A stretch of 64,000 bases of DNA, from the IMG/VR virus record IMGVR_UViG_3300035659_000001; one strand, written 5' to 3'. Positions 6,424-52,545 of this stretch are shown piece by piece (the first letter of the stretch is position 1; each line of letters begins with the position of its first letter). A program made the translations under genes and the position numbers. The notes under the pieces are model-generated. The model worked only from the letters and a program-made list of their open reading frames with translations. It was not told where the DNA came from and did no database searches. The DNA is from a virus (Duplodnaviria; Heunggongvirae; Uroviricota; Caudoviricetes).

Positions 6424-7590
6424 ATGAAAGCAATTTATGCATTTTCGGGTGATCCAATAACATTTGGTCACATTGATATTATAGAAAGAGCTGCTAAGGT
6501 TTTTACAAAAGTGTTAGTTTGTATTGGCAGTAATCCAGATAAAAAGTATATGTTTACACTTGAACAAAGATTGCAAATGGCCCAAGATGCATTGTCGTCA
6601 ATTAAAAATGTTGACGTCAAATCTTTTTCAGGATTGCTTGTTGACTTTGCTTTTGAGCAAAACATTTCAGTTATAATAAAAGGTGTTAGAAATACTACAG
6701 ATTTTGAATATGAAAATACTCTTCATGCTGTAGGCGAAAGTCAAAAATTAGGTATTGAAACATTTATATTGTTTGCAAAACCACAATTGGCTCATGTTAG
6801 CTCTAGTACAGTTAAGTCAATTCAAAAAGAACATGGCTTTATTCATGAATATGTTACATTGAATGTTAAAGAAGCTTTAGAGAAGCAGATGTCAAAACAG
6901 CTTATTATTGGTGTGACTGGTGAAATTGCTGCTGGAAAATCGTATGTAACTGATGCATTAGTTAGTTTGCTGGATAAGTCAAAAATTGAAGCTCATAATA
7001 TTGATTTAGATATTATTGCACATGAAATATTAGGTAGTTTAAAATTGCCTCAATATGTTGAAGTTAGACACAAAATATCTGCTAGATTTGGTGAAACCAT
7101 TAAGGATCTTTATGATTCTATTAATAGAAAAAAATTAGGAGCAATAGTGTTTAAGGATTCAAATGCTCTTAAAGATTTAAATGACATAATGAGAGATTCA
7201 ATACTTGTAAGAATTAAAAGAGAATTAAATAACAAAGAAGGCATTATCTTTTTGAATGCTGCTTTACTTGTAGAAGCAGGTATGACAGATTTATGTAATA
7301 ATAATGTGATTTTAGTTAAGTGTGACAAAGTTGTTCAGAGATCACGTCTTTACAAACGAGGCCTTTCAACTGTTCAATTAAATAAACGATTAAAATCTCA
7401 ATATTCTTATGATGAAAAGAAAGCAGTTCTTGCTGAGAGAATAAGAGAACATAACAAATATACAGGTAATATATTTATTGTAGATACTTCAAAAAATGAC
7501 TCTGACATTATAAATACTGCTAAATTATTATCAAATTTGCAAAGCGGTGATTCTAAAGGATTGTGGAAAAACAAATTTTTGACTTTATAA
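6424..7590 (+). CDS. Bifunctional phosphopantetheine adenylyltransferase / dephospho-CoA kinase (CoaD-CoaE fusion)
   Basis: N-terminus 'MKAIYAFSGDPITFGHIDIIERA' is the CoaD (H/T)xGH nucleotidyltransferase signature. The C-terminal half has the DPCK P-loop 'IGVTGEIAAGKSY'. Confidence 0.8.
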   Translation: MKAIYAFSGDPITFGHIDIIERAAKVFTKVLVCIGSNPDKKYMFTLEQRLQMAQDALSSIKNVDVKSFSGLLVDFAFEQNISVIIKGVRNTTDFEYENTLHAVGESQKLGIETFILFAKPQLAHVSSSTVKSIQKEHGFIHEYVTLNVKEALEKQMSKQLIIGVTGEIAAGKSYVTDALVSLLDKSKIEAHNIDLDIIAHEILGSLKLPQYVEVRHKISARFGETIKDLYDSINRKKLGAIVFKDSNALKDLNDIMRDSILVRIKRELNNKEGIIFLNAALLVEAGMTDLCNNNVILVKCDKVVQRSRLYKRGLSTVQLNKRLKSQYSYDEKKAVLAERIREHNKYTGNIFIVDTSKNDSDIINTAKLLSNLQSGDSKGLWKNKFLTL

Positions 7591-7661
7591 CCCTCTATAA
7601 CTCAGTGGTAGAGTGGCGTTCTCTAAAAATGCTGTCATCAGTTCAAATCTGATTAGAGGGA
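7591..7661 (+). tRNA. tRNA with anticodon CUA (amber-suppressor type; amino-acid identity undetermined)
   Basis: Manual cloverleaf: acceptor CCCTCTA/TAGAGGG, D arm ACTC-AGTGGTA-GAGT, anticodon stem GCGTT/AATGC with loop CTCTAAA (U33, anticodon CTA, A37), T arm ATCAG-TTCAAAT-CTGAT, discriminator A. No encoded CCA. Confidence 0.7.
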
Positions 7662-13895: not shown

Positions 13896-14102
13896 ATGTT
13901 TTTAATATTATTGGAAATTACTGTAGCGTGTATAGTGTTAATATTTTTTGTTACGCAATTAATTATACCTCTTTTTAGAGGAACTGTTTTCTTTCCTATG
14001 TTTAGAGAAGAGAGTGATTTAGAAACTAAATTACGAAAAACAAAGCAAAAGAAATTAGAGAAAAACTTGCAAGATGAAATTAAAAAAAATGAAAGCATAT
14101 AA
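13896..14102 (+). CDS. small membrane protein
   Basis: Hydrophobic N-terminal helix and a Lys-rich tail. RBS 'agaggaatgt ATG'. Confidence 0.3.
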   Translation: MFLILLEITVACIVLIFFVTQLIIPLFRGTVFFPMFREESDLETKLRKTKQKKLEKNLQDEIKKNESI

Positions 14103-15067
14103 TGTCAAAAAAACTATTAACAAATTTAAAGGAGAAGAGTATGTCACCGAAAACGATGGGTTTAACTGCTTTAGTTTCTATTGCATGTTTATTTTTTCTA
14201 ATTTCATGTTTTAAATTGTTTGAAAATAATAATGCAAATCAAATTATGTGTGTTCAAAGTCCTATACTTGGTAAATTAACATGGTACATTACTGCCGGCA
14301 CTAAATGGCAAGGATTTGGAAAAATTACAAAATATGATAAACGTTCTATTTATAATTTTTCATTACCAGTTAGATTTAATGATGCAGGACACGCCACTAT
14401 GACTGGATCAGTTCAATTTGATATGTCATTATCTAAAGAACATCTTGATAAAGTACAATCTAAGTTTGGTACTGAAGAAGCTATAAAAACTCAATTGTTA
14501 CAAACTGTAGTTAATAAGTGTTTGTATATGACTGGCCCAATGATGAGTAGTAAAGAATCGTATGCTGAAAAGAGAAGCTATCTAATTAATTATGTAGAAG
14601 ATCAAATATCGAATGGCATTTTTAGGACTGCTATAAAAGATACTACAATTAAAGACCCTATTACAGGAGTAGATAAGATGGCTTCTTTAGTTGAAATTGT
14701 CACTGTAAACAAAATTCCTCAGCGTCAGGAAGAAGCTGTATTAAAAGAATTTGGAATTAGAGCATTTAACTTTTCTATTGAGAAATTAGATTATGACGAA
14801 ACTGTTGAGAAACAAATACAGCAACAACAACAAATGACAATGGCAGTACAGACGTCAATAGCTGATGCAAAGAGAGCAGAGCAAGCAGCTATTACTGCAG
14901 AAGCTAATGGAAAAGCAAATGCTGCTACTGCAAAATGGGAACAAGAAACTAATAAAGCTCGTGCTGTTACTATAGCTGAAAAAGATAGAGATAGTTGTAA
15001 ATTAGTTATGGAAGCTGCAGCATTTAGGAAGCAAGCAAGTATATATAACTTTTGGATGATTTTATAG
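14102..15067 (+). CDS. SPFH/band-7 (prohibitin/stomatin/HflC-like) membrane protein
   Basis: N-terminal transmembrane segment, a central SPFH-like region and a C-terminal Ala/Glu-rich coiled coil 'ADAKRAEQAAITAEANGKANAATAKWEQE'. Confidence 0.55.
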   Translation: MSKKLLTNLKEKSMSPKTMGLTALVSIACLFFLISCFKLFENNNANQIMCVQSPILGKLTWYITAGTKWQGFGKITKYDKRSIYNFSLPVRFNDAGHATMTGSVQFDMSLSKEHLDKVQSKFGTEEAIKTQLLQTVVNKCLYMTGPMMSSKESYAEKRSYLINYVEDQISNGIFRTAIKDTTIKDPITGVDKMASLVEIVTVNKIPQRQEEAVLKEFGIRAFNFSIEKLDYDETVEKQIQQQQQMTMAVQTSIADAKRAEQAAITAEANGKANAATAKWEQETNKARAVTIAEKDRDSCKLVMEAAAFRKQASIYNFWMIL

Positions 15068-15709: not shown

Positions 15710-15754
15710 AAATTTTGTGATTATCTTGCAAAAGGATAGTAATAGTTAGTCTAT

Positions 15755-15899
15755 GGTTACTCGATTAATGCATTATTACAGATGGTCTGATCGTGCCGGT
15801 AATGGCAATTAATTGCTACTCGTAACTCGGCGATTAAACACCATACTATTACAAATTCGATAAGTGCGGGTGCACACGTGCGTGTATTAATTGGTAACC
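15755..15899. ncRNA. Candidate structured RNA (GC-rich island closed by a long-range stem)
   Basis: A 310-nt ORF-free gap. GGTTACTCGATTAATGC ... GTATTAATTGGTAACC closes about 140 nt. Internal palindromes GCAATTAATTGC and GTGCACACGTGCG. GC content well above the flanks. Confidence 0.3.
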
Positions 15900-16022
15900 T
15901 GGACTTTTTAAAAACTTTTGGGGTATAGATCAACAGTTATGACTATGAAATATATAGTTAATAATAATATAAATTATAGCAGTCGCATTTTATTTATACC
16001 ATAGCTTTAAAAAGGAAAGAGT

Positions 16023-17000
16023 ATGAAAGCAAATTTAGCAAAACAAGATAAAAAGCGCTTTGTAATTATGTTAATTTGTCTCATTTTATTTTCATTGTGC
16101 TTTGCGCAAAAAGATTCAACAAGTGATAGTTCACACGTGCTATTACCAAAGTCAATCGGTCCAACAACTCTATTTCAAAAATCATCAAGATTTAGAATGC
16201 AAGAATATAATTATTTCCTTTTTGGTTTAAGTAAAAAAAGTCCTATAATGGAATACAAAAATCAAGTTAAAATTTTATTTAGCATGAAATTTAATTTTTT
16301 TACTTTTACTTATGATTCATTATTAGTACTTGTTAAATTCAAAAAGATAACTAAAAATTTTAATTTATATAGAAGTTTAAACGTTGATATCGGCTATAGA
16401 CAAAAAAGCTTCTGGAATATTTATGATGATTCTACTTCTCGTCCAATGTATGACAATAATTACTCACCCTCTTTCTATCTTTCATGGATAACTTACATCA
16501 AAAAAATATCATTACCAATTTCAATATTAGCAGGCTATGTTCACGAATCAAACGGTGGAGCTACTTTTTTAAACCCATATTGTCCGGCAATATCAAGAAG
16601 TTGGGATAGAATTTATTTAGGCGCAAGCGCAGGAAATTTACAAACAAATCTTGTAACATTTCAATTAGATATGTGGGTACCTTTTGGTCTTGAAGAAAAT
16701 ACTGATATATATAAACATTATGGAATTGGTGAAATAACTTTGTACTATCAGCCATTTTTCAAATATCAACATTCATTATCAAATTTTGGTCTATCATTTA
16801 CGTGGAAAATAGCTAGTGAAAATTTCAACAATGCTGAACTTAGCTTATTTTTCAGTCCCTTTCAATTTGCTAAAAACAAAATTCTACGATTATTCACGCC
16901 CACATTTTATTCTCAACTATATTTAGGAAGCGGTGAGAATTTAATTGATTATCAAACTAGACATATTTCTTTTAGAATCGGTTTAGCTACGTTATTTTAA
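16023..17000 (+). CDS. pldA: Outer-membrane phospholipase A (OMPLA/PldA family) with signal peptide
   Basis: Signal peptide 'FVIMLICLILFSLCFA', a catalytic 'HESNGG...SRSWDRIYLG' block matching PldA 'HDSNG...SRSWNRLY', and a beta-barrel C-terminus ending in F. Confidence 0.75.
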   Translation: MKANLAKQDKKRFVIMLICLILFSLCFAQKDSTSDSSHVLLPKSIGPTTLFQKSSRFRMQEYNYFLFGLSKKSPIMEYKNQVKILFSMKFNFFTFTYDSLLVLVKFKKITKNFNLYRSLNVDIGYRQKSFWNIYDDSTSRPMYDNNYSPSFYLSWITYIKKISLPISILAGYVHESNGGATFLNPYCPAISRSWDRIYLGASAGNLQTNLVTFQLDMWVPFGLEENTDIYKHYGIGEITLYYQPFFKYQHSLSNFGLSFTWKIASENFNNAELSLFFSPFQFAKNKILRLFTPTFYSQLYLGSGENLIDYQTRHISFRIGLATLF

Positions 17001-17163: not shown

Positions 17164-17305
17164 AAAGGGTTACTTTTATGATTAGTATGCAGCGTTCATT
17201 AGGTGTGCGACAGTTTTCCTTCGAGGGAAACCCATGGTACGCGAACTCGAAGATACCGCGTATGGTGTCTTATTCGTTGCTGAAAATTATGAAGTAACCC
17301 TTTTT
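17164..17305 (+). ncRNA. Candidate cis-regulatory structured RNA upstream of the nucleotidyltransferase gene
   Basis: A 9-bp closing stem GGGTTACTT/AAGTAACCC encloses about 125 nt with at least two internal hairpins (TTCC-TTCGAG-GGAA; GTACGCG...CGCGTAT). GC-rich and ORF-free. Confidence 0.35.
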
Positions 17306-17348: not shown

Positions 17349-18281
17349 ATGAAAATTTCAAATATTCATTCATTAATGACAAGAATACAAACTGTATTTA
17401 TTGATAATTTTGGTTTTACACCATTACGTCAAAGAAATCAAGACATACTCACAGAAGCTATTGAGATATCAAGGTTTTCATCGACTGCTAATCTCAAAGA
17501 AGAACATGGTGATTTATTGTGCAGCCTTTTAATGAGTTTCAAAGAAAACGGTTGGGACCCTGTTGAATGTGTTGAAGCAACATTAAATAAAATTGAAAGA
17601 AGAAAAAGTCAATATCAAGCATACGGTCGAAAATTGTCAATAGCTATTTTAGGTGGTGCGTTTGACCCAATTACTGTGGGCCATATTGCAGTCGCTGAAT
17701 TTCTATTAAATGCTAGCTCACAATTCGACGAAGTCTGGATAACACCCTGTCGTAAGCATTTATTTAATAAAAAATTAGCAGATGCTGAGTATAGATTAGA
17801 ATTATGCAGATTAGCAACAAAGCATGATAGACGTATAAAAGTTTGGGATTATGAAATTAAACATAAACTTGGCGGTGAAACTTACAATCTTGTTAAACGA
17901 TTATTAGCAGATAAAGAATATTATGATAAATATAGTTTTTCAATTGTAATAGGCATGGATAATGCAAACACTTTCAATCAATGGATGAATTTTGAACATC
18001 TTGAACGATTAATACCATTTGTTGTTGTTACTAGAAGTGGTATAGAGATAAAGCATGAAAGTAATTGGTATTTAAAGTCACCGCATAAGTTTCTTGTGCC
18101 AGAGAAACCATTGCCTGAAGTTTCATCAACAATTATTAAAGCTGATTTATGCATATATTATAATATTTTTAAATCAGCGGGTGCTAGTTTAGGTAAAGAA
18201 AATCCATTAATAAATCGATTGAAAAATAATTTGAATCCTGAAGTTTTTGCGTCAATTATAAAAAATGAGGCATATAAGTGA
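17349..18281 (+). CDS. Nicotinamide/nicotinate mononucleotide adenylyltransferase-like enzyme (NadD/NMNAT family)
   Basis: 'ILGGAFDPITVGHIAVAE' (cytidylyltransferase GxFxPxHxGH), 'GGETYNLVKRL', 'IVIGMDNANTF'. A ~100-aa N-terminal extension of unknown function. Confidence 0.65.
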   Translation: MKISNIHSLMTRIQTVFIDNFGFTPLRQRNQDILTEAIEISRFSSTANLKEEHGDLLCSLLMSFKENGWDPVECVEATLNKIERRKSQYQAYGRKLSIAILGGAFDPITVGHIAVAEFLLNASSQFDEVWITPCRKHLFNKKLADAEYRLELCRLATKHDRRIKVWDYEIKHKLGGETYNLVKRLLADKEYYDKYSFSIVIGMDNANTFNQWMNFEHLERLIPFVVVTRSGIEIKHESNWYLKSPHKFLVPEKPLPEVSSTIIKADLCIYYNIFKSAGASLGKENPLINRLKNNLNPEVFASIIKNEAYK

Positions 18282-24710: not shown

Positions 24711-25358
24711 TTAGAACGTGGCGCTGCACCGGCGTCTAATTTCATCAATTAACCATTTTCTAGCATTAGTCTGCTGCACAAGTTTATGATTCATGTTGAT
24801 TTTTTCAATAAATTCTTTGTATGATATTTTTTCAAATGTATAAATAGCTGATTCAAGTGAAACATTGTATATCTTACTCAAACTATTTTTGTAGACTTCA
24901 TAATAAGCATTGCCTCTTAAATATGCTTTCTCATTTTGTTTTCCTCTATGCTCTACATCATGAAAGTGACTTTTATTATTAATAAATCTACCATCATATC
25001 CCAATAAATATATTTCTTTAAATTGTAATGCAATACCCACTGATAAGGCAAACAAACCCACTAAATAAGGACTATACATGCCATCTTTAAATCCATTAGT
25101 ATTATATTGTTTTGACGTTTTTAATGTAATGAAATCATCAGGAACTGACAAAACTTTTTTTGTTATTTTCAATGCTTTATTATTTAGTATTTGTTGTTTA
25201 TTGTTTTGAGAAAAATCTTTATCGACCCAAACAATAGCTGTCGGCTCATAAAAATGACATACAAAATTTAATCCAAACGTTATGTGATTATTTAATGTAT
25301 GCAAATCAAAACTATCTATGCTAGAACCACCACCAATTATTATTAGCTTTTCATTCAT
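24711..25358 (-). CDS. GT42-like (CstII/Cst-I sialyltransferase-like) glycosyltransferase
   Basis: The motif order matches Campylobacter CstII. 'KLIIIGGGSSI' corresponds to IIAGNGPSL, 'TFGLNFVCHFYE' to VFRCNQFYFE, 'YLVGLFALSVGIALQFKEIYLLGYDGRF' to GVYMCAVAIALGYKEIYLSGIDFY, and 'HFHDVEH' to the catalytic-His region. Confidence 0.55.
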   Translation of the reverse strand: MNEKLIIIGGGSSIDSFDLHTLNNHITFGLNFVCHFYEPTAIVWVDKDFSQNNKQQILNNKALKITKKVLSVPDDFITLKTSKQYNTNGFKDGMYSPYLVGLFALSVGIALQFKEIYLLGYDGRFINNKSHFHDVEHRGKQNEKAYLRGNAYYEVYKNSLSKIYNVSLESAIYTFEKISYKEFIEKINMNHKLVQQTNARKWLIDEIRRRCSATF

Positions 25359-28300
25359 TTTTTAATCTTCTTGATGCTTGAAAGTGTTCAATTACAGGCT
25401 TATCTGCATCTTTCATTGTGTCAAAGATTTGACAATATGCAGGAGATAAAATGTAAGTTTTCAAATTTTGCAATGAATTAACTGCTTCATGAAGATAGGA
25501 TTGATCTAATTTATATTTTTTATTATTGCTATTAACTAACTGTTTCCATTTTTCTAACAATTCAAAAGCTTTTTGAGTATAATTGAAATACATAGTACCG
25601 CCAAGCAGCTCGCTAGTGTTATTTCTTTTCATTCTTAAGTGATATGCAAAATCATATTTATCTAACTTAAATAATAACTCAGGCTGTTGTTGAATTATTG
25701 CATCACAATCAACCCATACTACAGGACATCTATGCTTATTTAGCATGTCTTTAACAAATTCAGTTCTATAAAAACAATTTGCAAACCAACTACCCTGTGA
25801 GTTAATACCAATTATTTCATAATTCAATTTAAATTTTTTCAATGATAATTCTAAAGTTTTGTATTCTTTTTCATAGCCTGTATTTTTAGTATAATAAGAC
25901 ACAAACACTAAGTTAGAAGTCGGTTGTTCTAGTTGACGTGTAACTTGTTTTGATTCAACAATTGGTTGAATTTGTTCAATCTCTTTAAATGTGGTTTGTT
26001 CAAATTGAATATCTAAATTTTTAAAATCTATATTCTTACGATTAGGTAACAAATTAATAAAATCATTACTCATATTTTCAATCTCTTTAAATTTATTTTG
26101 CATTACTAATTGAAAAGTGTTATCCCATAATTTCTGAGTGACTGACCAACTAAAAAACTTTTCAATGTGTTGTCTATTTCTTTCGCCAGTTTGTCGTCTT
26201 AATTGAAGATTGTTTTTCAATAACAATAACTTTTCATTCATTTCTTTTATTACTTGATCATCAGGTGTCACTGACACTATCCATTGCTCGTCTAATAGCA
26301 TACAGATACTGCCAACTTTAGTTGAAACAACTGGCAATCCGCAAGCCATTGCTTCTAATACTACTCTTGGCATACATTCACTTATGCTTGTTAAAATTAA
26401 TACATCAATTGAATTGTAAAAGTCTTTCATTTTGTCTAATGTTTGACCATCAACAAAGTATTGCTTTCCCCAGTCACTCTTTTTTTCAACTTTAAAATCT
26501 AATTGATCTAATAAATAAGGTCTTTTTACATCTCTGATGCAGCCTGCCCAACCAACAATAAAACTATTTGATTTTTTATTAGAAGGAATAAAGTAATTAG
26601 TATCAATAGCTTCAGGTAAGAAAATTACTGACTTGTTAGGATACATTTGTCTCAAAAAATCCAGATGTTGAATCGAAATTGAGACTATTATGTCAGGCTC
26701 AGGTTCGTATTTCATTTTACATTCGCCGCCATAGCCGCCAATTATTTTCACATTCTTTTGTTTTAATTGTGTTATCAATTGCTGACATCTAGTATAATCT
26801 ATATTCGGTGAATGTATGTACACTACATCAGCGCTTAAAGTTGTTACATCTAGTAATCTTTTATATTCAATGTTATGAGTTGAATATTTTTGTTGATCTT
26901 TTGCAATAAAATAATATGCCCAACCGAACTGGTCAATTATTTTACAAATAGTAAGTTTTTTGTTTTGTAAGGTTGGTTTCTGTTGAATATTTTGAACATT
27001 TTTTTTAGTAGGTACATATTCATTCCAATTTCTAAAACATAACTTGCATGTGTCATTCATTTTATTTGGCTCACAGAGACTGTCTCTTAAATTGCTGGCA
27101 TAGTCATTTTGCCAGACAATATTATCTTTTATGGTTCCGTGTTCTTTTGCAGGCGCAAAGACGGAACCACAAAATGAAACGCTTCCGTTACCATTTATGC
27201 CAATTGTTGTCCACGGTATTTGACAATTACATCTTATTTCATTTCGTTGTATTAATGTAGGATAAAGCTTGATAATGTCAGCTTCTGGTAGATTTTGCAA
27301 TTCGTCAATTTCTTTTTTATCATTATACGTTAATACTTCATTCCAAAAATTTTCATCATCATAATTGACAGCTAAGTGAGGTAATAAATTTAATAAATGA
27401 ACTGTTTTAACACCATGATCTTTTACTAATTTTAAAAATTCAGGAACATATTTCAAATTACTTTTCGTGCAAACATAAGAACAAAATGTATTAAGATCAT
27501 TACTTATACAAAAATCAATGCCTTGTAAGACTTTTTGAAATGTATTTGAATTATTTATTTTATTATGTAGTTTTGCATTTGGTGCATTTAAGCTAATCGA
27601 TATATAATCAGGTTTTGCATTAAGTAATTCATTAGCTCTATCAATTATTAATGACCCATTGGTTATTAGACCCACAATTTTATTTTTATTTTTCAAATGG
27701 TTAATAATTTGAAATAAATTTTGATTTAGAAATGGTTCACCATACCCTGCACAACAAAAACTTTTTAAACTATCAAATTTAGATAATAAATTATTGACAG
27801 TTTCAATAGTTAAGTCAGGCGCTTGTTCAATTAGATTTGTATTTCTGTAGCAAAAATTACAATTAAAGTTGCATTTTGAAGTTAAGTATAAATTTGCATT
27901 TATAGGCATTTGTAAGAAGCTACGTGCACGTTCAAAGCTTCGATGATGACATCTAAAATCTTTTTCACCAATTTGTATGTTATCATTAATCAAACTAGTG
28001 TATATTCCAAGAAATGCATATAAGTTATTTTCGGAAGGATTAGATTTTAATATATTCCATAATTTTAGCGGTAAATCAGCAATCCATATATATTTGAATT
28101 GCTTAAATTTGTCCATTAAATTATAATAACGTTCAAATATACCTTCATTTGACCATTGTGGAGCATGTTTGCCAACTATATTTTTAAATAATTTAATTAA
28201 ATATCCATCTTGTTTAAGTCTGTCAATTTGTTCAACTTCACAAGACATTGATTCTAAATTATATGGATATTTTTTGAGAATATCATGCTTGTAAATTTTT

Positions 28301-28623
28301 ACGCCCGAGATTTCAAAGTCAAGATGAACATCAATTAAATTACAAATTATAATGGCAGTTTTATTATTAGATTGCTTAGCGAAATTATAGAGTGTTTCAA
28401 TGCCATTTTCATTCATAACCATATCTTCATCTATTTCAATATAATATGACGTTTTACAAGAGTCAATCATTAATTGAAAAGCTGCAGACATTGGATGAAC
28501 ATTTTTAATAATTTCAATATTGAACGTGAGCGTTTGCTGTTGCAATGCTTTTATACATTCATTATAGCACGGATTTTCCCCACAGCTAATTACAAAAACA
28601 GTTAAGTCTTTAGCAAAGTTCAC
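25351..28623 (-). CDS. 1090-aa four-domain enzyme: GT-A/GT2-like, radical SAM with SPASM/twitch Cys cluster, GT-B/GT4, and a C-terminal DXD nucleotide-sugar transferase-like domain
   Basis: N-terminus 'TVFVISCGENP' and 'YYIEIDEDMV' (DXD). rSAM 'YLTSKCNFNCNFCY' (CX3CX2C), 'GYGEPFL', 'ISISLN'. SPASM 'CNCQIPWTTIGINGNGSVSFCG...CEPNKMNDTCKLC'. GT4 'VGWAGCIRDVKRPY...ECMPRVVLEAMACGLPVVSTKVG'. C-terminus 'PVVWVDCDAI'. Overlaps the GT42 gene by 8 nt. Confidence 0.75.
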   Translation of the reverse strand: MNFAKDLTVFVISCGENPCYNECIKALQQQTLTFNIEIIKNVHPMSAAFQLMIDSCKTSYYIEIDEDMVMNENGIETLYNFAKQSNNKTAIIICNLIDVHLDFEISGVKIYKHDILKKYPYNLESMSCEVEQIDRLKQDGYLIKLFKNIVGKHAPQWSNEGIFERYYNLMDKFKQFKYIWIADLPLKLWNILKSNPSENNLYAFLGIYTSLINDNIQIGEKDFRCHHRSFERARSFLQMPINANLYLTSKCNFNCNFCYRNTNLIEQAPDLTIETVNNLLSKFDSLKSFCCAGYGEPFLNQNLFQIINHLKNKNKIVGLITNGSLIIDRANELLNAKPDYISISLNAPNAKLHNKINNSNTFQKVLQGIDFCISNDLNTFCSYVCTKSNLKYVPEFLKLVKDHGVKTVHLLNLLPHLAVNYDDENFWNEVLTYNDKKEIDELQNLPEADIIKLYPTLIQRNEIRCNCQIPWTTIGINGNGSVSFCGSVFAPAKEHGTIKDNIVWQNDYASNLRDSLCEPNKMNDTCKLCFRNWNEYVPTKKNVQNIQQKPTLQNKKLTICKIIDQFGWAYYFIAKDQQKYSTHNIEYKRLLDVTTLSADVVYIHSPNIDYTRCQQLITQLKQKNVKIIGGYGGECKMKYEPEPDIIVSISIQHLDFLRQMYPNKSVIFLPEAIDTNYFIPSNKKSNSFIVGWAGCIRDVKRPYLLDQLDFKVEKKSDWGKQYFVDGQTLDKMKDFYNSIDVLILTSISECMPRVVLEAMACGLPVVSTKVGSICMLLDEQWIVSVTPDDQVIKEMNEKLLLLKNNLQLRRQTGERNRQHIEKFFSWSVTQKLWDNTFQLVMQNKFKEIENMSNDFINLLPNRKNIDFKNLDIQFEQTTFKEIEQIQPIVESKQVTRQLEQPTSNLVFVSYYTKNTGYEKEYKTLELSLKKFKLNYEIIGINSQGSWFANCFYRTEFVKDMLNKHRCPVVWVDCDAIIQQQPELLFKLDKYDFAYHLRMKRNNTSELLGGTMYFNYTQKAFELLEKWKQLVNSNNKKYKLDQSYLHEAVNSLQNLKTYILSPAYCQIFDTMKDADKPVIEHFQASRRLKNE

Positions 28624-37925: not shown

Positions 37926-40900
37926 TTATTCGTTTGCCATTTCATCATATTTGGCTAATTTCTCCTTTTGCTCGGGAGTTCTTTCATATAAATTGCCAAC
38001 ACAACAAATATCTAACAAATCTATAAATATTCTGCCCATATATTCGCTAGCAACAGCTTCACCAACTAAAATATTATCAACTTTGATAACTTCTTGAACT
38101 TTGACTTTTGCATATTTTCCAGTTTCTTGTTTTAAAAGAAAAGCGCTTGAGCATCTTCTATTATAACAGGGTATTCTAACTTTGACCATGTTAAATTTTG
38201 AATCAGTTAATGTCACATAATAATAACTATTATTAGCTTTACTTGTTTTTTCAACAATCTCAGAAGCTACTCCCCAAACAGTAGCTTTCATATTTACTTT
38301 TGGTTGTGTAAAATTTGTTAACATGACAGCTTTTAATTTTGCAACTTCTCTTTTTTGACTATCAGATAATTTTGTTCGCCAATCTAAAGCATAAGCATCA
38401 ATAAACTGTTCATGTTCATATTTTGTATCATTATAATCAACATCTCGTTCCCACTTTTTCTCTTTTCTTATTTCTTTGTAATATTTTTCTAATATCTCAT
38501 TTTGAGTGCCAAATGCATCAAATGCATGACCGCTAATTAAAGCTATCATAGCTGTTTTTGTTATTTTCTTTATTTGTGATGTTTTCTCGCAAAAATCTTC
38601 AAATGAATCAAATGGCTGTGACTGTAAAATATTATTTATAACTGCAGGTCCTACATGATTTATATGGCCTAAGCCAAACATAATACTTTTTTCTTCACCA
38701 TATATTGAAAAACCTTCTTTAGCTCTGCTAATATTTGCAGGAACAATACTTATGCCATGACTTATGATCTCTGCAAAATAACTTGTAAACTTTTCCTTCA
38801 ATGAATTTGACAACAATACTACATAAAACTCCAAAGCATAATATTCTTTAAACCACATCATCTGGTAACTTAGAACAGTGTATGCTACTGCATGCGAGCG
38901 GTTGAATCCGTAGCGTGCAAATGCGACGCAACTTTGCCACAAAATTTCAGCAGAAGTTTCAATTAAGTCACCGACGCTTATACAGCCCTTAATAAATTTA
39001 TCATGAATTTCTTTTCGTTGTTTAGCTTCTTTATCTTTTGCATCAGTGTCTCGTATTGATTTCATTAAATTTTTTCTAACTGTATCAGTCAAATCTAATG
39101 GAAATCCTGCAACCATGTGACACAATCTCATTACATCTTCTTGATAAACTAAAATACCATAACTTGATTTCAAACATTTTTCAACTAATTTTGATTCGTA
39201 ATTGAATTCTTTACCATTTTTTCTTTGTGCATATTCATGATGCATTCCCATATCTAACGGTCCGGGGCGACCTAGCGCTGTTGCTGTCGTTATGTCAGAA
39301 AACGTTGTAGGTTTTATTTCTTTCAATAAAGCTTTCATTAAGTTGCTATTATGAACTACAAATCCATTAGCTATATAATTATGATTTATAGCTTCAGGAT
39401 CAAAACCAATATCATAAACTTCTTTTGTACCAACAAATTGAATGGCTTTAATTGGCACATATATATACCTGAACATGTGTCTTGCAAATCGTTTATATAT
39501 TTTAACTTTAACTTTACCCTTTTTCCATACACGTCTAAGAATATAATCTTTCTTATAAGTTTTTATTGGTCTAAATTTTGACAACAATTGAGGTCTACAT
39601 GTTCTTTGACCACTTCTAATGCAACTTGCGCAATTTTCAGCTATACCTTGCACATCTACTGATCTATTGTAAAATGCACAATAATGTTGACATCTGAACC
39701 GCTCTTGATCAATTAATATTTTGTCATCAACTTTTAATTCTTCTAATCTTTTCCAACCGCGAGGTGTATAAAATTCATGTAGTAATGCAGTTTCAATACA
39801 TCTATCGTTATCATATTGAACTGTAACTCTGTAAACATCTCGTACTTGTTTTTTCATAGCAAATATTTTTTGTCTAATTTTCATTTTTCTAGTTGACGGA
39901 TTTAAATTAACACAGCTAACTTTGTGTATTGACTTTTTATTTTTTTCAAACATATCATATAAGTTTTTGATTCTATATGAGCCAACCCATGAATTGCCGT
40001 CAATACATTCAAATTGAAAAATACCATTTGTATCAGTTTGTCTAAATTTTGAATAAATTGTGTTATTGCCATCTAACGGCAATTTTGATGAAAATTCTTC
40101 ATAAAATAATGATGTTATTTGCTTATGTTCAATAGATCGTAAATCAAAATCTGCTTTATCATTATACGATTTTGTTGATCTAATAATGTCAAGTATTTCT
40201 TTTATAATAGATAATGTTTTTAGACCAAGAATATCAAATTTAATGAATCCTGAAGATTGTAAATCTTTTCGAATGATGCCATCAACCCAGCTTGTTATAA
40301 GCTCATTTTTATGTCTCATTAAAGGTATTGTTTCATCAATTTTTGTCGGCGTTGCAACTACACCTGCGGGATGTTTTGTAAGATGTCTTAATTGGCCTTT
40401 TAGTTTGAATAAGATCTCTCTTATTTGAGGATGTCGTCCAAGATATTGTTTTATATCATATAGATCCTGTCTAAAGCCATCTTGACCAGATTCAATCATT
40501 AAAGTTGCGTCAAACACTTCTTCAGACATTTCATCAACATCATCAGCAAGATTTTTAACAACATCATTAGTGTCTTGAATATCAATATCAAATATTCTAG
40601 CAATATCTCTTAAAACCATTTTCATTTTCATTTGACCGTAAGAGCCAATAGGAGCTACATGGTCATTGCCATATTTGTCAATAAAATATTTAATGACAAG
40701 TTCTCTTTCATTCATACTAAAATCACTATCAATGTCAGGAAATGAAGATTGCTTTTTGATTTTTAGAACGATGTTGTTTTTGATTGGATCTGTAGACGAT
40801 ATGTTTAAAAGATAATACATTAAAGAACCGTGCGTTTTAACTTTTACTTTATTTTTAATGAGGCTAATTATGTAGTCTTGTAAATTTTGAACATTGACAT

Positions 40901-41012
40901 TTGTTAATTCTCTTTCAAGTGCTTGAATATATTTATCATTTTCATGTAATGATAGTTCTTTTAATTTTTTCTCACACAAATATTGAATAAAATCAATTTT
41001 TTTTATATCCAT
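37926..41012 (-). CDS. dnaE: DNA polymerase III alpha (DnaE, family C) C-terminal segment containing an intein
   Basis: 'FPDIDSDFSMNERELVIKYFIDKYG' corresponds to DnaE 'MPDFDVDFCMEKRD..', 'FIKFDILGLKTLSII' to 'FDFLGLRTLT', 'ALGRPGPLDMGM' to 'ALFRPGPLQSGM', 'YGILVYQEDVMRL' to 'YGIILYQEQVMQI', and 'RSHAVAYTVLSYQMMWFKEYY' to '[21 protein letters not shown]'. Confidence 0.8.
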   Translation of the reverse strand: MDIKKIDFIQYLCEKKLKELSLHENDKYIQALERELTNVNVQNLQDYIISLIKNKVKVKTHGSLMYYLLNISSTDPIKNNIVLKIKKQSSFPDIDSDFSMNERELVIKYFIDKYGNDHVAPIGSYGQMKMKMVLRDIARIFDIDIQDTNDVVKNLADDVDEMSEEVFDATLMIESGQDGFRQDLYDIKQYLGRHPQIREILFKLKGQLRHLTKHPAGVVATPTKIDETIPLMRHKNELITSWVDGIIRKDLQSSGFIKFDILGLKTLSIIKEILDIIRSTKSYNDKADFDLRSIEHKQITSLFYEEFSSKLPLDGNNTIYSKFRQTDTNGIFQFECIDGNSWVGSYRIKNLYDMFEKNKKSIHKVSCVNLNPSTRKMKIRQKIFAMKKQVRDVYRVTVQYDNDRCIETALLHEFYTPRGWKRLEELKVDDKILIDQERFRCQHYCAFYNRSVDVQGIAENCASCIRSGQRTCRPQLLSKFRPIKTYKKDYILRRVWKKGKVKVKIYKRFARHMFRYIYVPIKAIQFVGTKEVYDIGFDPEAINHNYIANGFVVHNSNLMKALLKEIKPTTFSDITTATALGRPGPLDMGMHHEYAQRKNGKEFNYESKLVEKCLKSSYGILVYQEDVMRLCHMVAGFPLDLTDTVRKNLMKSIRDTDAKDKEAKQRKEIHDKFIKGCISVGDLIETSAEILWQSCVAFARYGFNRSHAVAYTVLSYQMMWFKEYYALEFYVVLLSNSLKEKFTSYFAEIISHGISIVPANISRAKEGFSIYGEEKSIMFGLGHINHVGPAVINNILQSQPFDSFEDFCEKTSQIKKITKTAMIALISGHAFDAFGTQNEILEKYYKEIRKEKKWERDVDYNDTKYEHEQFIDAYALDWRTKLSDSQKREVAKLKAVMLTNFTQPKVNMKATVWGVASEIVEKTSKANNSYYYVTLTDSKFNMVKVRIPCYNRRCSSAFLLKQETGKYAKVKVQEVIKVDNILVGEAVASEYMGRIFIDLLDICCVGNLYERTPEQKEKLAKYDEMANE
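39348..40007 (-). other. Intein (about 220 aa) inserted in the DnaE 'GxFQxES' motif
   Basis: The extein reads 'NGIFQFE|S NLMKALLKEIKP', matching DnaE 'GVFQLESRGMKDLIKRLQP'. The insert begins with 'CIDGNSWVG' (block A Cys) and ends 'NGFVVHN' followed by Ser (block G). The interior is basic and Cys-rich. Confidence 0.6.
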
Positions 41013-41384: not shown

Positions 41385-42014
41385 TTACCTCGTAGCTAAA
41401 GAGCAAATGTTCTCTTTAGAAATATCAACGTCTATTTGCTTACTTTGAATAGTAAGTTTTGCAATTGCTTTATCTTTTATAGATACAAACAATTCATTTC
41501 CCTTTAATTCAACTGATAATTGTTCATGTAATTTATCGACATCAATATTTTGTCGTAACATCCATGAAGGTGAAAACGGATCACTATGACGAAATCTTGG
41601 TACTTGAAAAGACGGTCTTCCAAATGTACCTGTTACACCTGATAAACCTGTAACACCTGATAAACCTGTAACACCCTGTATACCCATATATCCTACAAGT
41701 TCAGCAGGCGCACCTACAAATTCAGTGCCAGTTGCACCACCAATAAGCCCGTTAGTTACCATGTGTCCGTTAGATGAAAGTGCAACACTTTGAACTCGTC
41801 TTTCAAAAAGAGTATCACGGGAAAGACATTCTTGACTTATTTGTTCATTTTCTATTTCATCGTTACAAAGTAAATTAAATTTTTCAAAAGATTTTTTACT
41901 AACAATATCTACTTTGTCAACAACTATATCGTCTACTCTATTATAGCTTCTAAAAAATAATTTTTTCTTAACTAAATCTAACCCATTAATTGCTAAAAAT
42001 TTTTCATTTGACAT
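41385..42014 (-). CDS. hypothetical protein with an in-frame 18-nt tandem repeat (GVTGLSGVTGLSGVTG)
   Basis: DNA repeat 'CCTGATAAACCTGTAACA' about 2.5 times at ~41640-41690, giving Gly-Val-Thr-Gly-Leu-Ser repeats. Confidence 0.4.
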   Translation of the reverse strand: MSNEKFLAINGLDLVKKKLFFRSYNRVDDIVVDKVDIVSKKSFEKFNLLCNDEIENEQISQECLSRDTLFERRVQSVALSSNGHMVTNGLIGGATGTEFVGAPAELVGYMGIQGVTGLSGVTGLSGVTGTFGRPSFQVPRFRHSDPFSPSWMLRQNIDVDKLHEQLSVELKGNELFVSIKDKAIAKLTIQSKQIDVDISKENICSLATR

Positions 42015-42775
42015 TTTAGCTTCTTTATAGTTCTTTCATAGTCCTCAAATCTAATTTTTGCTATTTTTGATCGATCACTTGTCCTGACTACAATACCTTC
42101 TGGTTTTCCACCCTCTCCGTCAATAGGTGCATTTGTCTTACCGGGAAGCATAGTTTTTAACCAAGCAAATGTCTCTATTAAATCTTTAGGCGGACAATAT
42201 GACTCTAATCTTGGAACTATTGGTATATCGACTTTTCTTGCTATATCTTGAAATTGCTGTTCATTAAGAAATTTTTGATGACCATGATCACGAAGAAAAG
42301 AAATTGACTGAATTGAATTATTCACTAAAAAACTATCAAAATCATATTCAGAATCATAATAAGCGACATCGAATAATCTAAAACCAGGTGCACGACAACT
42401 TGTATAATTTTTAGCGTTATTAATATTCAATCCATATACTTCACCAAAAAATATCCATACATAACTTGTTAAATTTATATCATTGAACTTTGACATTAAT
42501 GGTCTTAAAGTATCTACTATGCCCATTGATGGATTGTAAATTAAATCACCACTAGCAGTAAGTAGTTCTTCCCTTGAGCCTATAAAATAAGACTTATCAT
42601 AAAATAGAATGATCCTTGCATTAGTGCCATCAATCTTCTCTGTAAGAATTACTGGATCATTAAATTCAACTTGAACATTATTTACTAAACTACCTTTATC
42701 ACCAAGTTCATGATAAGTAAGAATTGAAGGATATTTTGCTGCTGAATTTAATTTGTCTAAATTTGTCTTAATCAT
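41993..42775 (-). CDS. RNA ligase, Rnl2-like (nucleotidyltransferase superfamily)
   Basis: Motif I 'KIDGTNARI', motif IV 'EGIVVR', motif V 'KIRFEDY'. Size 260 aa. Confidence 0.7.
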   Translation of the reverse strand: MIKTNLDKLNSAAKYPSILTYHELGDKGSLVNNVQVEFNDPVILTEKIDGTNARIILFYDKSYFIGSREELLTASGDLIYNPSMGIVDTLRPLMSKFNDINLTSYVWIFFGEVYGLNINNAKNYTSCRAPGFRLFDVAYYDSEYDFDSFLVNNSIQSISFLRDHGHQKFLNEQQFQDIARKVDIPIVPRLESYCPPKDLIETFAWLKTMLPGKTNAPIDGEGGKPEGIVVRTSDRSKIAKIRFEDYERTIKKLKCQMKNF

Positions 42776-42852: not shown

Positions 42853-44697
42853 TTATTCATTATCCAACCTAATGAGTCTATTATTATACCATTCTTCAAA
42901 TTCATTTTCTATATATAATTCGTTCTTATCTTCTATTTCTTTAATCTCACCAACAGATAAGTCATATACAGCCATACTTCTTGACATACTCAAAAATCTC
43001 TCAAATAACAAATCATGCTTTAATGGATCTATATTTGTAATATCCATTAAGTAACATGCAAGAGAACCTGCGCTCGACCCACGTGCTGGGCCTACAAGCA
43101 CACCATGTTCTTTGGCCCATTTAATATAATCAGCTACAATTAAAAAATAATCAGACATTTCTGTGCGCCTGATAACACTTAATTCATATTTTATTCTTTT
43201 TGTATATTGACTATTTTCTTCATACCAATGATCTTCAGCTTTTCTATCCCATCCATCTCTAGTCAACTGAACTAAATAATCGTAACTGCTCAAATCACCA
43301 GTATCAATTTTTGGTAATTTTTCTTTAGTATCCCAGTCCCAAGAATCAATTTTTTTAGCTACTTTTATTGTATTATCAAGAGCCACTTGAAAGTCTTCAA
43401 GGCTTAAGTATTTATAATGACCTTGATCTATATATGCATCAATCATTTGATGTCTGTCTTTAAACCAGAAGTCTTTAGTTGAAAACTCCCAAACTCTTTT
43501 AAATTTTTTCTTTCCAGTAACAATGTCTAAAATTTCATTAAAAGTAATTCCGTCATCTTTATCTCTTAATGGTTTAAACTTTTTAAATCTATCTAACTCA
43601 ATAAAACTATTGTAAGTTTTACGTATATGATTTGGATCAACATCATTTCCAATTGCATCTAAAATTTCACCCATTGCATGCAATCTTTCTTTATCTTTCA
43701 TTGTAACTTGTTCACCATCATCTTTAGAACCCAACATTAGTGATATTTCTTGAGCTTTAGAATCAAGTTTATCTAAATAATGAACGTCGTTTGTTACAAT
43801 GAAATTAATGTTTAATTCTTTAGCAATCTCAACTAATATCTTATTTACATATCTTTGTTTATCAATATCAATAACCATTATCTCAATATAAAAATCATCA
43901 CCAAACGTATCTTTATATAATTTTGCTGCTTTTAATCCTGCTTCTTTTGCTTGGTCTTTATCTTCATACTGTAAAATCATATTACTAATGATACCTTGTA
44001 GACAAGCTGACGTGACAATTATACCTTCTTTATTTTCAGCTATGAATTCAAAAGATGTCCTGGGTTTGTAATAAAAACCATTTCTTGCAGCGTCACTAAT
44101 AATTTTAATGATGTTTTTACTGCCAATGTTGTTTTTTGCTAATAAGACGACGTGTTGATTTTTTTTTAATGTATCTCTTTTAATTGATAACTGCTTGTCT
44201 TCATTTTTGAAATATTTTAAAGCTATATCAAATTTTTCAACTAATTCTTCATATTCATATTTACTAGCTTTTTCATAATCAAGTTGAGGTTGTTTAAGCA
44301 CTTCTCTAATAAAATTAATGTGAACATTAAATAATTGTTTATTTAATTTTTCATGCTTCATAGCTTGCTTTAGTATTTTAACTTTTTTGTCAATTTCATC
44401 TAAAACATCATTGTGTTTTTTAACTTCAAATCTATCATTTTGTACATACATTTCTACGCCAATAATAGGCTTTAAATTATTTGATCTACAATACATAAAA
44501 AAAGACGGATGAGAGCCTGCACTGCCATGATCAGTTATAGCTAATGCTGACATACCGATTTCAATTGCTTTTTTTGCATATTGAGTGGGTTTGCAAATGC
44601 CGTCTTTTAATGAGAAATCACTATGTAGATGTAGATGAATAAAATCTTTTTTGTCACCTGTAGAATATAGTTGTTGTCGTATTTGTTCTTTATTCAT
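42853..44697 (-). CDS. dnaE: DNA polymerase III alpha (DnaE) N-terminal segment (PHP domain through the GPxRGS region)
   Basis: 'FIHLHLHSDFSLKDG...ALAITDHG' (PHP), 'HVVLLAKNNIGSKNI', 'VGPARGSSAGSLACYLMDITNIDPLKHDLLFERFLS'. Ends about 40 aa after the point where the C-terminal segment resumes. Confidence 0.8.
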   Translation of the reverse strand: MNKEQIRQQLYSTGDKKDFIHLHLHSDFSLKDGICKPTQYAKKAIEIGMSALAITDHGSAGSHPSFFMYCRSNNLKPIIGVEMYVQNDRFEVKKHNDVLDEIDKKVKILKQAMKHEKLNKQLFNVHINFIREVLKQPQLDYEKASKYEYEELVEKFDIALKYFKNEDKQLSIKRDTLKKNQHVVLLAKNNIGSKNIIKIISDAARNGFYYKPRTSFEFIAENKEGIIVTSACLQGIISNMILQYEDKDQAKEAGLKAAKLYKDTFGDDFYIEIMVIDIDKQRYVNKILVEIAKELNINFIVTNDVHYLDKLDSKAQEISLMLGSKDDGEQVTMKDKERLHAMGEILDAIGNDVDPNHIRKTYNSFIELDRFKKFKPLRDKDDGITFNEILDIVTGKKKFKRVWEFSTKDFWFKDRHQMIDAYIDQGHYKYLSLEDFQVALDNTIKVAKKIDSWDWDTKEKLPKIDTGDLSSYDYLVQLTRDGWDRKAEDHWYEENSQYTKRIKYELSVIRRTEMSDYFLIVADYIKWAKEHGVLVGPARGSSAGSLACYLMDITNIDPLKHDLLFERFLSMSRSMAVYDLSVGEIKEIEDKNELYIENEFEEWYNNRLIRLDNE

Positions 44698-52008: not shown

Positions 52009-52545
52009 CTAAGCAACTTTGATGTCTTCAACTTTTATGTTAGTATAAATTGCTCTATTGAAAATTTGAATTTCTAATCGTAAACTATTAACATCAACTA
52101 TTTCAATTATTCTTCCTGATAAGCCCTTACAATGACCACCCAATATTTCAACTACATCATTAACTTTGTATTTAAAAGCACTGTGAATCTTGTTATCAGC
52201 TGCAATAGCTTTCACAATATCCATGTCTTCTTGACTAATTGGCAGCGGTTTTTTGTAGCCTAAAAATTTTATGACAAAGTTGATTTCATTTAAGATGTGA
52301 GATTGAAGTTCTTCTAATAAATTAGCTCTAATAAATAGATATGATGAATAGACTGGAACATTTCGAACAATTTTTTTTCGTCTTATTTCAGATATTTCTT
52401 TAACAGTCGGTAACAATACTTCATAAATCATACCACTATTTACAAATAGTTCAAGATTATTTTTAATCACAAATTCTTTGTCTTGTACAACAAATAGAAC
52501 ATACCAATTAACATTTTTAAGGCATTTATTTTCATTTAAATTCAT
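52009..52545 (-). CDS. NusG/Spt5-like transcription factor (NGN + KOW)
   Basis: N-terminus 'WYVLFVVQDKEFVIKNNLE' (NGN). C-terminus 'VNDVVEILGGHCKGLSGRIIEIVDVNSLRLEIQIFNRAIYTNIKVEDI' (KOW-like). Confidence 0.5.
   Translation of the reverse strand: MNLNENKCLKNVNWYVLFVVQDKEFVIKNNLELFVNSGMIYEVLLPTVKEISEIRRKKIVRNVPVYSSYLFIRANLLEELQSHILNEINFVIKFLGYKKPLPISQEDMDIVKAIAADNKIHSAFKYKVNDVVEILGGHCKGLSGRIIEIVDVNSLRLEIQIFNRAIYTNIKVEDIKVA

Follow-up and report, generated by a model that had tools for sequence, protein, structure and literature searches.

Among Gram-negative bacteria, outer-membrane phospholipase A (OMPLA, PldA) is a textbook example of a chromosomally encoded enzyme with housekeeping and stress functions. 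The Escherichia coli enzyme has the catalytic triad His142-Ser144-Asn156, and its activity is regulated by reversible dimerisation and by Ca2+ (PMC5043575, PMC11481481). Whereas PldA of E. coli and Salmonella is encoded on the chromosome, the homologue described here is predicted to be encoded by a phage. It is specified by an open reading frame (ORF) of 325 codons at positions 16023–17000 on the plus strand of a 64,000-nucleotide stretch of DNA, referred to throughout as the window, from the IMG/VR virus record IMGVR_UViG_3300035659_000001 (Caudoviricetes). An initial annotation, made from the letters of this DNA, had called the product an OMPLA homologue in a phage and had proposed that it could act in lysis as an alternative to spanins, in superinfection exclusion or envelope remodelling, or as a virion-associated lipase. 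As far as we have found, no phage member of this well-known enzyme family has been reported, and the protein described here is a new form of it, associated with phages.

The described phage systems to which such a protein can be compared fall into two groups. Spanins (Rz/Rz1 of lambda) and the disruptin gp28 of phage phiKT breach the outer membrane to complete lysis, a job that the phage OMPLA might share. There is no kinship with either in sequence or structure. Spanins work by fusing membranes and the disruptin is a cationic peptide; the protein considered here is a predicted integral-barrel serine hydrolase without a lysis cassette. An enzymatic analogue among the phage outer-membrane disruptors is the LysB esterase of mycobacteriophages. 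The second group comprises Lom of lambda and the Lc porin of phage PA-2, phage-encoded outer-membrane β-barrels that are morons, serve as lysogenic-conversion genes of temperate phages and are not enzymes. The present protein resembles them in being phage-encoded, exported and inserted into the host outer membrane (here a prediction), and differs in belonging to the OMPLA family of enzymes, in being carried by a predicted megaphage, and in that no integrase gene was seen in the window.

Identity, fold and active site of the phage OMPLA

The coding sequence is complete, running from an ATG start to a TAA stop. A Shine-Dalgarno-like AGGAAAG (16013–16019, plus strand) was read directly from the sequence 6 nt 5' of the ATG at 16023; sites of the AGGAG or AAGGA type precede many other genes of the window, and an alternative ATG at 16068 has no such site. 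Over residues 109–322 the ORF matches PF02253 (PLA1, the name used below for the gene) with E=1.8e-23, scoring 83.9 bits where the gathering threshold is 27, and a phmmer search of the PDB matched it to the solved OMPLA chains 1qd6, 1fw2, 1ild and 7ezz with E=3e-10 to 1.4e-9. Against the enterobacterial PldA equivalog of NCBIfam (NF008031/PRK10763) it scored 62 bits, under the cut-off of 369, and for this reason we class it from its sequence as a member of the OMPLA family and not as an orthologue-grade PldA. Identity to Salmonella PldA is 26% in our alignment, and in the Foldseek matches the E. coli and S. typhi enzymes are 22–24% identical to the phage protein. The phage protein has in common with E. 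coli and Salmonella PldA (PDB 1qd5, 1qd6, 1fw2, 7ezz) the family, the fold, the HxSNG, SRSW and YxQKSxW motifs, the signal peptide and a terminal Phe. It departs from the E. coli protein in having Asp in place of Asn156, in the loss of the Asp149 equivalent, in a 7-residue insertion in the Ca2+ loop and in a longer β2-β3 hairpin. The family match, the matches to OMPLA chains in the PDB and a fold whose leading matches are all OMPLA bear out the earlier identification of an OMPLA/PldA homologue, and we consider it very probable that the gene encodes a functional phage-borne OMPLA, for which enzyme activity, localisation and dimerisation are predicted.

The fold was modelled with AlphaFold2 from an input of 14 clade sequences. 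The model is a β-barrel with the 12 canonical strands and one lengthened hairpin, with a predicted local distance difference test score (pLDDT) of 68.4 and a predicted template-modelling score (pTM) of 0.65. When it was compared with the PDB by Foldseek, the top eight matches were all OMPLA, with E ~1e-9 and template-modelling scores of 0.64–0.70 normalised to the target, and the ninth was BamA with E=9e-3. A topology incompatible with OMPLA had been named in advance as an argument against the assignment; the model, which is of moderate confidence, has that of a 12-stranded OMPLA-like barrel.

Both ends of the protein carry features expected of an exported outer-membrane barrel. The predicted Sec signal peptide spans residues 1–28, MKANLAKQDKKRFVIMLICLILFSLCFA (16023–16106, plus strand), with cleavage before Q29. 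This is a heuristic call from the charge and hydrophobicity profile, in which an n-region of charge +5 is followed by a 12-residue hydrophobic core, LICLILFSLCFA, and by Ala at −1; the best 11-residue Kyte-Doolittle window in the N-terminus scores 3.55. Residues 3–26 are modelled as a helix, and equivalent h-regions ending in A or S align in the homologues and in Salmonella PldA. The Sec signal claimed in the initial annotation is thus present as a signal-peptide-like N-terminus. The β-barrel C-terminus claimed there likewise holds, with an aromatic β-signal at the ...GLATLF end: clade alignment and model place the last β-strand and a predicted signal for the β-barrel assembly machinery (BAM), SFRIGLATLF with terminal Phe, at 16968–16997 on the plus strand. 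The ending R(I/V)G(L/I)AT(L/I)(F/Y) is found throughout the clade, Salmonella PldA also terminates in Phe, and the last strand is modelled at residues 314–322. A host of this phage must have two membranes and the BAM machinery, a constraint that can help to link uncultured megaphages to their hosts.

A clade-specific insertion of ~20–25 residues (alignment columns 201–225; 16299–16373, plus strand) lengthens the β2-β3 hairpin. It is present in the clade and in neither Salmonella PldA nor the homologue P0013, and the region is modelled as long continuous strands at residues 80–105 and 110–133. From the topology of E. coli OMPLA we infer that the insertion would lie on the periplasmic side.

Residues of the active site were compared in an alignment of 15 sequences, comprising the query, 13 metagenomic homologues and the chromosomal Salmonella PldA that adjoins recQ. 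The catalytic motif H174-E-S176-N-G178 (16542–16556, plus strand) corresponds to His142, Ser144 and the oxyanion-hole Gly146 of E. coli. His174, Ser176, Asn177 and Gly178 (E. coli His142, Ser144, Asn145 and Gly146) are invariant in all 15 sequences, and H174 and S176 align with H142 and S144 of the OMPLA chains in the PDB. The strings HESNGG and SRSWDRIY, in which the catalytic His-Ser region had been recognised earlier, are found at residues 174–179 (16542–16559) and 191–198 (16593–16616), and the invariance of H174 and S176 agrees with that recognition.

In the second motif, S191-R-S-W-D195-R (16593–16610, plus strand), Ser191 aligns with the Ca2+ ligand Ser152, and Asp195 occupies the triad position of Asn156; Ser191, Arg192, Trp194 and Arg196 are invariant in the aligned sequences. 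Position 195 is Asp in 13 of the 14 non-enterobacterial sequences (the query and the 13 homologues), Glu in the other one, and Asn in Salmonella. Across 136 scored family representatives from an exhaustive hidden Markov model search the same column reads N in 85, D in 44 and E in 4, so that an acidic residue is found there in 48 of the 136 as well as in every clade member. Because of this distribution Asp is a normal state in the family, and on the alignment Asp195 is a common natural variant giving a predicted classical triad, Ser176-His174-Asp195. The initial annotation had held that absence of the conserved Asn would speak against the assignment. The literal Asn is indeed absent, but that expectation was mis-specified, Asp being common in the family and the triad intact.

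We take the calcium sites of E. coli OMPLA to be a catalytic site, made by the side chain of Ser152 and the backbone of Arg147 and Ser106, and a second site made by Asp149 and Asp184. The calcium-binding residues, whose absence had also been named as telling against the assignment, are retained in part. The equivalents of Ser152 and Ser106 (Ser139) are invariant, and the Asp184 position is taken by Glu225. The active-site and Ca2+ loop at residues 179–190, GATFLNPYCPAI (16557–16592, plus strand), replaces the E. coli loop that bears Arg147 and Asp149, and because it contains no acidic residue the equivalent of the calcium ligand Asp149 is missing. Counting of the spacing between HxSxG and SRxW showed that it is 5 residues in 124 of 136 family members and 12 in the query and in P0001–P0003; the 7-residue insertion is therefore specific to a subclade, the 12-residue loop being confined within the clade to these four proteins. 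The pLDDT of residues 181–190 is 52.

A third conserved motif bears on dimerisation. The codon of Gln127 (16401–16403, plus strand), within the invariant YRQKSFW, aligns with that of Gln94 in the YTQ motif at the E. coli dimer interface, and Tyr125, Gln127, Lys128 and Trp131 are invariant in 15 of 15 aligned sequences. Gln94 of E. coli is a dimer-interface residue that acts in dimerisation, and the invariance of Gln127 is consistent with activation of the phage protein by dimerisation.

The replicon and the relatives of the gene

The readable sequence amounts to ~84 kb, made up of the 64-kb window and two 10-kb extensions, from a genome likely of >135–300 kb. The window has a G+C content of 29% and encodes a replication and repair module, in which a DnaE-like polymerase in two pieces (phrog_405, E=3.7e-131 and 7.2e-124) is accompanied by a UvsX-like recombinase, a single-stranded DNA-binding protein, a helicase, a primase, an SbcC/SbcD-like nuclease and an NAD-dependent ligase. 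The polymerase, helicase, primase, recombinase, single-stranded DNA-binding protein and SbcC-like nuclease all have PHROG matches, and PhageMetallopep was matched in addition. Further genes of the window specify a CCA-adding enzyme, thymidylate synthase, dUTPase, NusG, a sigma-like protein and the phage metallopeptidase, and there are six tRNAs, one of which is an amber suppressor. Two viral contigs in IMG/VR, of 330 kb and 416 kb, carry relatives of the DnaE-like polymerase with 61–73% identity, and the SbcC-like gene is also found on a contig of the 0.2–1 Mb size class. Five contigs, drawn from at least three samples, encode an identical PLA1 protein with the same flanks; the longest of them measures 135,639 bp. 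No close relative was found among GenBank phages. The replication module, the six tRNAs, the relatives of 330–416 kb in IMG/VR and the recurrence in at least three samples lead us to regard the replicon, on its gene content, as a megaphage (Caudoviricetes, huge-phage type). The earlier statement that the gene lies in a phage is supported by this gene content and by the IMG/VR relatives; virion structural genes were not seen in the 64-kb window.

Relatives of the protein were collected in two ways (L and P handles denote the metagenomic loci that were compared and the homologous proteins, respectively). A word-indexed search of 5.8 billion proteins returned 13 relatives, all with PF02253, and an exhaustive profile search returned 2326 OMPLA-family proteins, among which the clade of the query is a single 50%-identity cluster at 476 bits, the next match scoring 289 bits. 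In a neighbour-joining tree the window protein and P0001–P0012 are monophyletic in 186 of 200 bootstraps, with P0014 as sister to the clade in 199 of 200. Clade members are 45–92% identical to the query and come from backgrounds of 29% to 46% G+C with unrelated gene neighbourhoods; they share an N-terminal motif, GPTxxF...QEPNYFIFGF, and the Asp or Glu at the triad position.

L094 (85% identity) shares synteny with the window, and a gene of the T4_Y16D family directly precedes PLA1 there, at a distance of 10 nt. L001 (68%) has PLA1 adjoining a secreted protein of 249 residues and, two genes downstream, an immunoglobulin (Ig)/BNR-repeat protein of 2530 residues, with a T4 gp3-like tail gene nearby. 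A lineage comprising L004, L101–L104 and L013 (45–53%) includes the IMG/VR record UViG_3300035179_000003, on which homologue P0010 is located; small flanking ORFs conserved in the L004 lineage are soluble and unannotated. In L095 (53%) PLA1 directly follows a papain-like C1 peptidase, and the contig also carries an M15_3 peptidase and SpoVG. In L096 (47%) it adjoins TnpA and TnpB of an IS200/IS605 element. P0005 on L014 (51%) is nested in the clade and lies in a chromosomal-looking setting with two C25 peptidases, a glycosyltransferase and PCMT; a neighbour has weak matches to type-IX-secretion sorting domains, and P0005 is probably chromosomal, from a bacterium of the FCB group.

The G+C content of PLA1 tracks that of each replicon, from 28% against 29% in the window phage to 45.5% in the 46% background of L014, and G+C at third codon positions (GC3) matches as well. 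Between the window gene and its L094 orthologue dN/dS is 0.16 at dS 0.52. For these two reasons the gene appears to be long resident and functional in phages and under purifying selection, and the clade is predicted to be a conserved, selected and phage-associated one in megaphages. Within IMG/VR one contig carries PLA1, though the phage family is represented there, and from this distribution the gene is judged mobile and sporadic. When PolX was used as a synteny anchor for presence or absence of PLA1 in the IMG/VR relatives, nothing was found. A scan of genome collections for a clue to the host gave only Bacteroidota at 25–32% identity, a result biased by the search patterns, and identity between the nearest representatives and any named locus does not exceed 38%.

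Insertion-sequence genes were seen at two of these loci. The IS200/IS605 TnpA and TnpB genes of L096 lie directly upstream of PLA1 (L096:3859–5435), and a TnpB at L004:377–1519, 8.5 kb upstream of PLA1, clusters with the TnpB of L096; these elements may be linked to mobility of the PLA1 accessory region. The C1 peptidase of L095 (L095:4747–5505, 252 residues) has no obvious signal peptide and lies 20 nt upstream of PLA1, and in the lineage of L004 and L013 radical-SAM genes closely precede PLA1. A second lipase gene was also noted: ~9 kb past the right end of the window, the same phage encodes a 302-residue patatin-like phospholipase (PF01734; L097:21080–21988) that closely resembles phospholipase effectors of the CBASS type (PADLOC PDLC00758, E=1.5e-39). 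A patatin 62% identical to it lies 2.1 kb from PLA1 in L096 (L096:2594–3508), so that at least two related phages have both lipases.

We found no prior description of such a gene. Full-text literature searches returned no paper describing a phage-encoded OMPLA, and the protein matched no PHROG family and no PADLOC model. When three divergent family members were compared by tblastn with 50,697 GenBank phage records, five records matched. Two are Salmonella whole-genome shotgun contigs, and in the one inspected the match is the chromosomal pldA beside recQ. Two are 'Acinetobacter phage MD-2021a' contigs, of which the inspected one is chromosomal (cydA, ilvA, argC, clpS and a TonB-dependent receptor). 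The fifth is an unverified and unannotated faecal scaffold of 4.3 kb, whose OMPLA resembles those on large gut-metagenome contigs. On this evidence no genuine GenBank phage genome with an OMPLA is present among the 50,697 records. The 'phage' records CAKLQF020000008.1, CAKLQH020000031.1, AGRM01000003.1 and AFYI01000004.1 are contigs of bacterial chromosomes, the Acinetobacter one being mislabelled, and give false matches to housekeeping genes such as pldA.

Possible roles during infection

Of the roles that can be proposed for the phage OMPLA, we tentatively favour that of a lysis helper triggered by envelope damage, a reading that we hold to be plausible and short of probable. The protein would be exported by Sec during infection, inserted into the host outer membrane by BAM and kept there as a latent monomeric barrel, like cellular OMPLA. 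Once the envelope is perturbed and phospholipids reach the outer leaflet, it would be activated by Ca2+-dependent dimerisation; in effect, the phage would pre-load the outer membrane with a damage-triggered lipase. When holin and endolysin damage the envelope, the lipase would turn the phospholipids of the outer membrane into lysophospholipids and fatty acids and so speed the final breach of the outer membrane, as a helper of spanin-type disruption or as a substitute for it. Since activation would be post-translational, neither a place in a lysis cassette nor late expression would be needed.

Three precedents lead us to favour this role. Colicin lysis proteins activate OMPLA, which results in colicin release and lysis (PMC4305986); the neisserial OMPLA acts in autolysis, according to the account of Bos et al. 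2005 given in PMC11798529 and PMC11481481; and in ~15% of phages infecting Gram-negative hosts no spanin can be recognised, at least one of these phages using a different outer-membrane disruptor (10.1101/515445). A loose linkage of PLA1 to peptidoglycan hydrolases, at 4–9 kb, is seen in two relatives, with an endolysin-like M23 peptidase 8.5 kb downstream of PLA1 in L001 and the M15_3 peptidase 4.4 kb upstream in L095. If the lysis role is true, the protein would be the first outer-membrane disruptor of an enzymatic kind in phages that infect Gram-negative bacteria, and a concrete candidate for the escape route of some spanin-less phages. A wider and more doubtful proposal is that OMPLA forms a third, enzymatic class of outer-membrane disruptor beside spanins and disruptins, and that together with the cytoplasmic patatin it could give megaphages a lipolytic strategy of lysis that acts on two membranes. 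Synthesis of so small a protein is easy, and its role lends itself to direct testing in E. coli.

Several observations weigh against a role in lysis. The 64-kb window and its two 10-kb extensions contain no recognised endolysin, holin or spanin gene, no ORF with a lipobox was found in these 84 kb, and the small ORFs with two transmembrane segments there are two orphans only. All-against-all clustering of neighbouring ORFs yielded no conserved partner gene, PLA1 alone being common to all backgrounds. PLA1 is set among replication, nucleotide and tRNA genes, with an SPFH membrane protein and a gene resembling nicotinamide mononucleotide (NMN) adenylyltransferase adjacent, a neighbourhood typical of host-physiology genes. 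Timing of expression offers no help, as k-mer enrichment upstream of 28–40 genes gave no promoter consensus and hence no inference of timing. The gene appears dispensable, because related IMG/VR megaphages are apparently without it. The non-acidic 7-residue insertion in the Ca2+ loop may mean that regulation is unlike that of E. coli OMPLA, and the structural model on which the barrel is predicted is of moderate confidence (pLDDT 68).

The same neighbourhood fits an alternative in which the phage OMPLA maintains the envelope, keeping the host outer membrane intact through a long megaphage infection. It would remove phospholipids mislocalised to the outer leaflet, and the freed fatty acids would signal for more lipopolysaccharide (LPS) synthesis, as with E. 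coli PldA; the phage would thereby avoid premature failure of the membrane after shut-off of host expression, or in hosts without a pldA of their own. PldA does sense and repair outer-membrane lipid asymmetry, and acts through FadD and acyl-CoA to block degradation of LpxC by FtsH (PMC5874903). In the window the gene is found among others of host-physiology type, with an SPFH/Band-7 protein 1 kb upstream, the NMN-adenylyltransferase-like gene downstream, and trigger factor, NusG and the CCA-adding enzyme elsewhere in the genome, and no lysis genes are linked to it in the 84 kb. The HflK/C branch of the SPFH family modulates FtsH. However, OMPLA barrels are very stable, so that the host's own copy would last beyond the infection. 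Adjacency to the SPFH gene lacks conservation, being absent from L094 and interrupted in L008 by extra genes; phage genes related to fadD or lpxC were not seen; and the gene is sporadic among related megaphages. We regard envelope maintenance, the main rival to the lysis role, as rather unlikely. If maintenance or remodelling were nevertheless the role, huge phages would be taking over outer-membrane lipid homeostasis.

The sporadic distribution would suit superinfection exclusion or remodelling of the cell surface, in which altered lipids or vesiculation might hinder adsorption or injection by rival phages, or shed decoy vesicles. PLA1 is a mobile accessory gene near IS200/IS605 in L096 and TnpB in L004, a distribution typical of competition and defence genes; it lies in a non-structural part of the genome, away from recognised lysis genes; and the same phage carries the CBASS-effector-like patatin phospholipase. 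On the other side, no PADLOC defence model was matched, no precedent was met in the literature searched, and cellular OMPLA is latent until damage, a poor fit for constitutive remodelling. We hold exclusion or remodelling to be improbable.

It is more improbable still that the replicon is no phage or that the gene is a passenger on it, which would make the DNA another kind of mobile element, a fragment of a small low-GC cellular genome, the carrier of a recent host-derived gene that has no function specific to the phage, or an assembly chimera. In favour of such an origin, genes for capsid, portal, terminase and tail were not recognised in the window and its 20 kb of extensions, the genome encodes cell-like trigger factor, NusG, sigma-like proteins and NAD-dependent ligase, and clade member P0005 is found in a cellular-looking context on L014. 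Against it stand the strong PHROG matches of the replication proteins and the DnaE relatives on viral contigs of 330–416 kb, the T4_Y16D gene and T4 gp3-like tail protein of the relatives, the identical gene and flanks in at least three samples, and the match in GC and GC3 with a dN/dS of 0.16. As for a virion-associated lipase, packaged in the particle and hydrolysing host outer-membrane lipids at entry, PLA1 of L001 does lie beside the 2530-residue Ig/BNR-repeat protein and near the gp3-like tail gene, but such adjacency to structural genes occurs in one lineage only, and a Sec signal peptide, a BAM β-signal and a 12-stranded lipid-embedded barrel are incompatible with a soluble virion component, so that this option of the initial annotation fits poorly and is extremely unlikely.

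Neighbouring genes, RNA structures and other features of the genome

Upstream of PLA1 by ~1 kb, the interval 13896–15067 (plus strand) encodes a 68-residue protein with an N-terminal transmembrane segment, followed by the membrane-anchored SPFH/Band-7 protein (PF01145, 27.7 bits), an arrangement that resembles an NfeD-stomatin pair. In L008 the SPFH gene is longer (399 residues) and ~3 kb of extra genes (RRM_1, HTH_11 and two others) lie between it and PLA1. There are two cytidylyltransferase-like genes of the NMN or nicotinic acid mononucleotide (NaMN) adenylyltransferase type, at 17349–18281 and 6424–7590 (both plus strand). A CoaE-like kinase is fused to one of them, and the N-terminal region of the other bears a weak resemblance to MazG. 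Their presence suggests phage manipulation of NAD or CoA metabolism.

Both flanks of PLA1 contain candidate RNA structures. Between PLA1 and the NMN-adenylyltransferase-like gene, 17166–17305 (plus strand) can form a multi-branched RNA-like structure of 140 nt, followed by a T-run and closed by a long stem, GGGTTACTT...AAGTAACCC. Its minimum free energy is −52.8 kcal/mol (z=−5.4, 0 of 200 shuffles as good). The compared loci contain only identical copies of it. Candidate functions for it are those of an elaborate terminator, of a riboswitch or leader acting on the gene that follows, and of a small RNA. On the other side, the GC-richer intergenic stretch 15748–15905 (plus strand) upstream of PLA1 contains a long imperfect hairpin (z=−2.4, 2 of 200 shuffles as good) and is absent from L094. 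The structured flanks had no Rfam match, even at E<=1. A scan for sigma-70 consensus sites was uninformative in this 70% A+T DNA, with 43 sites found and 31 expected.

The two pieces of the DnaE-like polymerase (phrog_405) are ORFs at 42853–44697 and 37926–41012 on the minus strand, between which lie an RNA-ligase-like gene (41993–42775) and an ORF of 209 residues (41385–42014). An alternative reading of the polymerase as a split family-B enzyme of the T4 type was ruled out by tblastn, which identified it as DnaE-like. The tRNA with a CTA anticodon (7591–7661, plus strand) is called tRNA-Pyl by ARAGORN and scores 60 bits against the Rfam tRNA family. Recoding of TAG was considered for the window and rejected, as TAG closes 9 of the 45 long ORFs and reading through it lengthens ORFs by a few codons only; the stop of PLA1 is TAA. 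The suppressor may serve stop-codon recoding confined to late genes elsewhere in the genome.

The phage also encodes a set of cell-like factors for gene expression and protein folding, namely a full-length trigger factor of 432 residues, NusG, two sigma-70-like proteins with weak matches to regions r2 and r4, a CCA-adding enzyme and a cREC_REC protein. These genes lie at L098:7496–8794, at 80–607, 52009–52545 and 52687–53430 of the window, and at L097:13446–14387. A protein of 1090 residues that combines radical-SAM and Glycos_transf_1 domains is encoded at 25351–28623 (minus strand). Giant Ig-repeat proteins are found in the window phage (L098:1–1648, 1383 residues) and in L001 (L001:11790–19382, 2530 residues); they share repeat similarity and are probably virion surface or fibre proteins.

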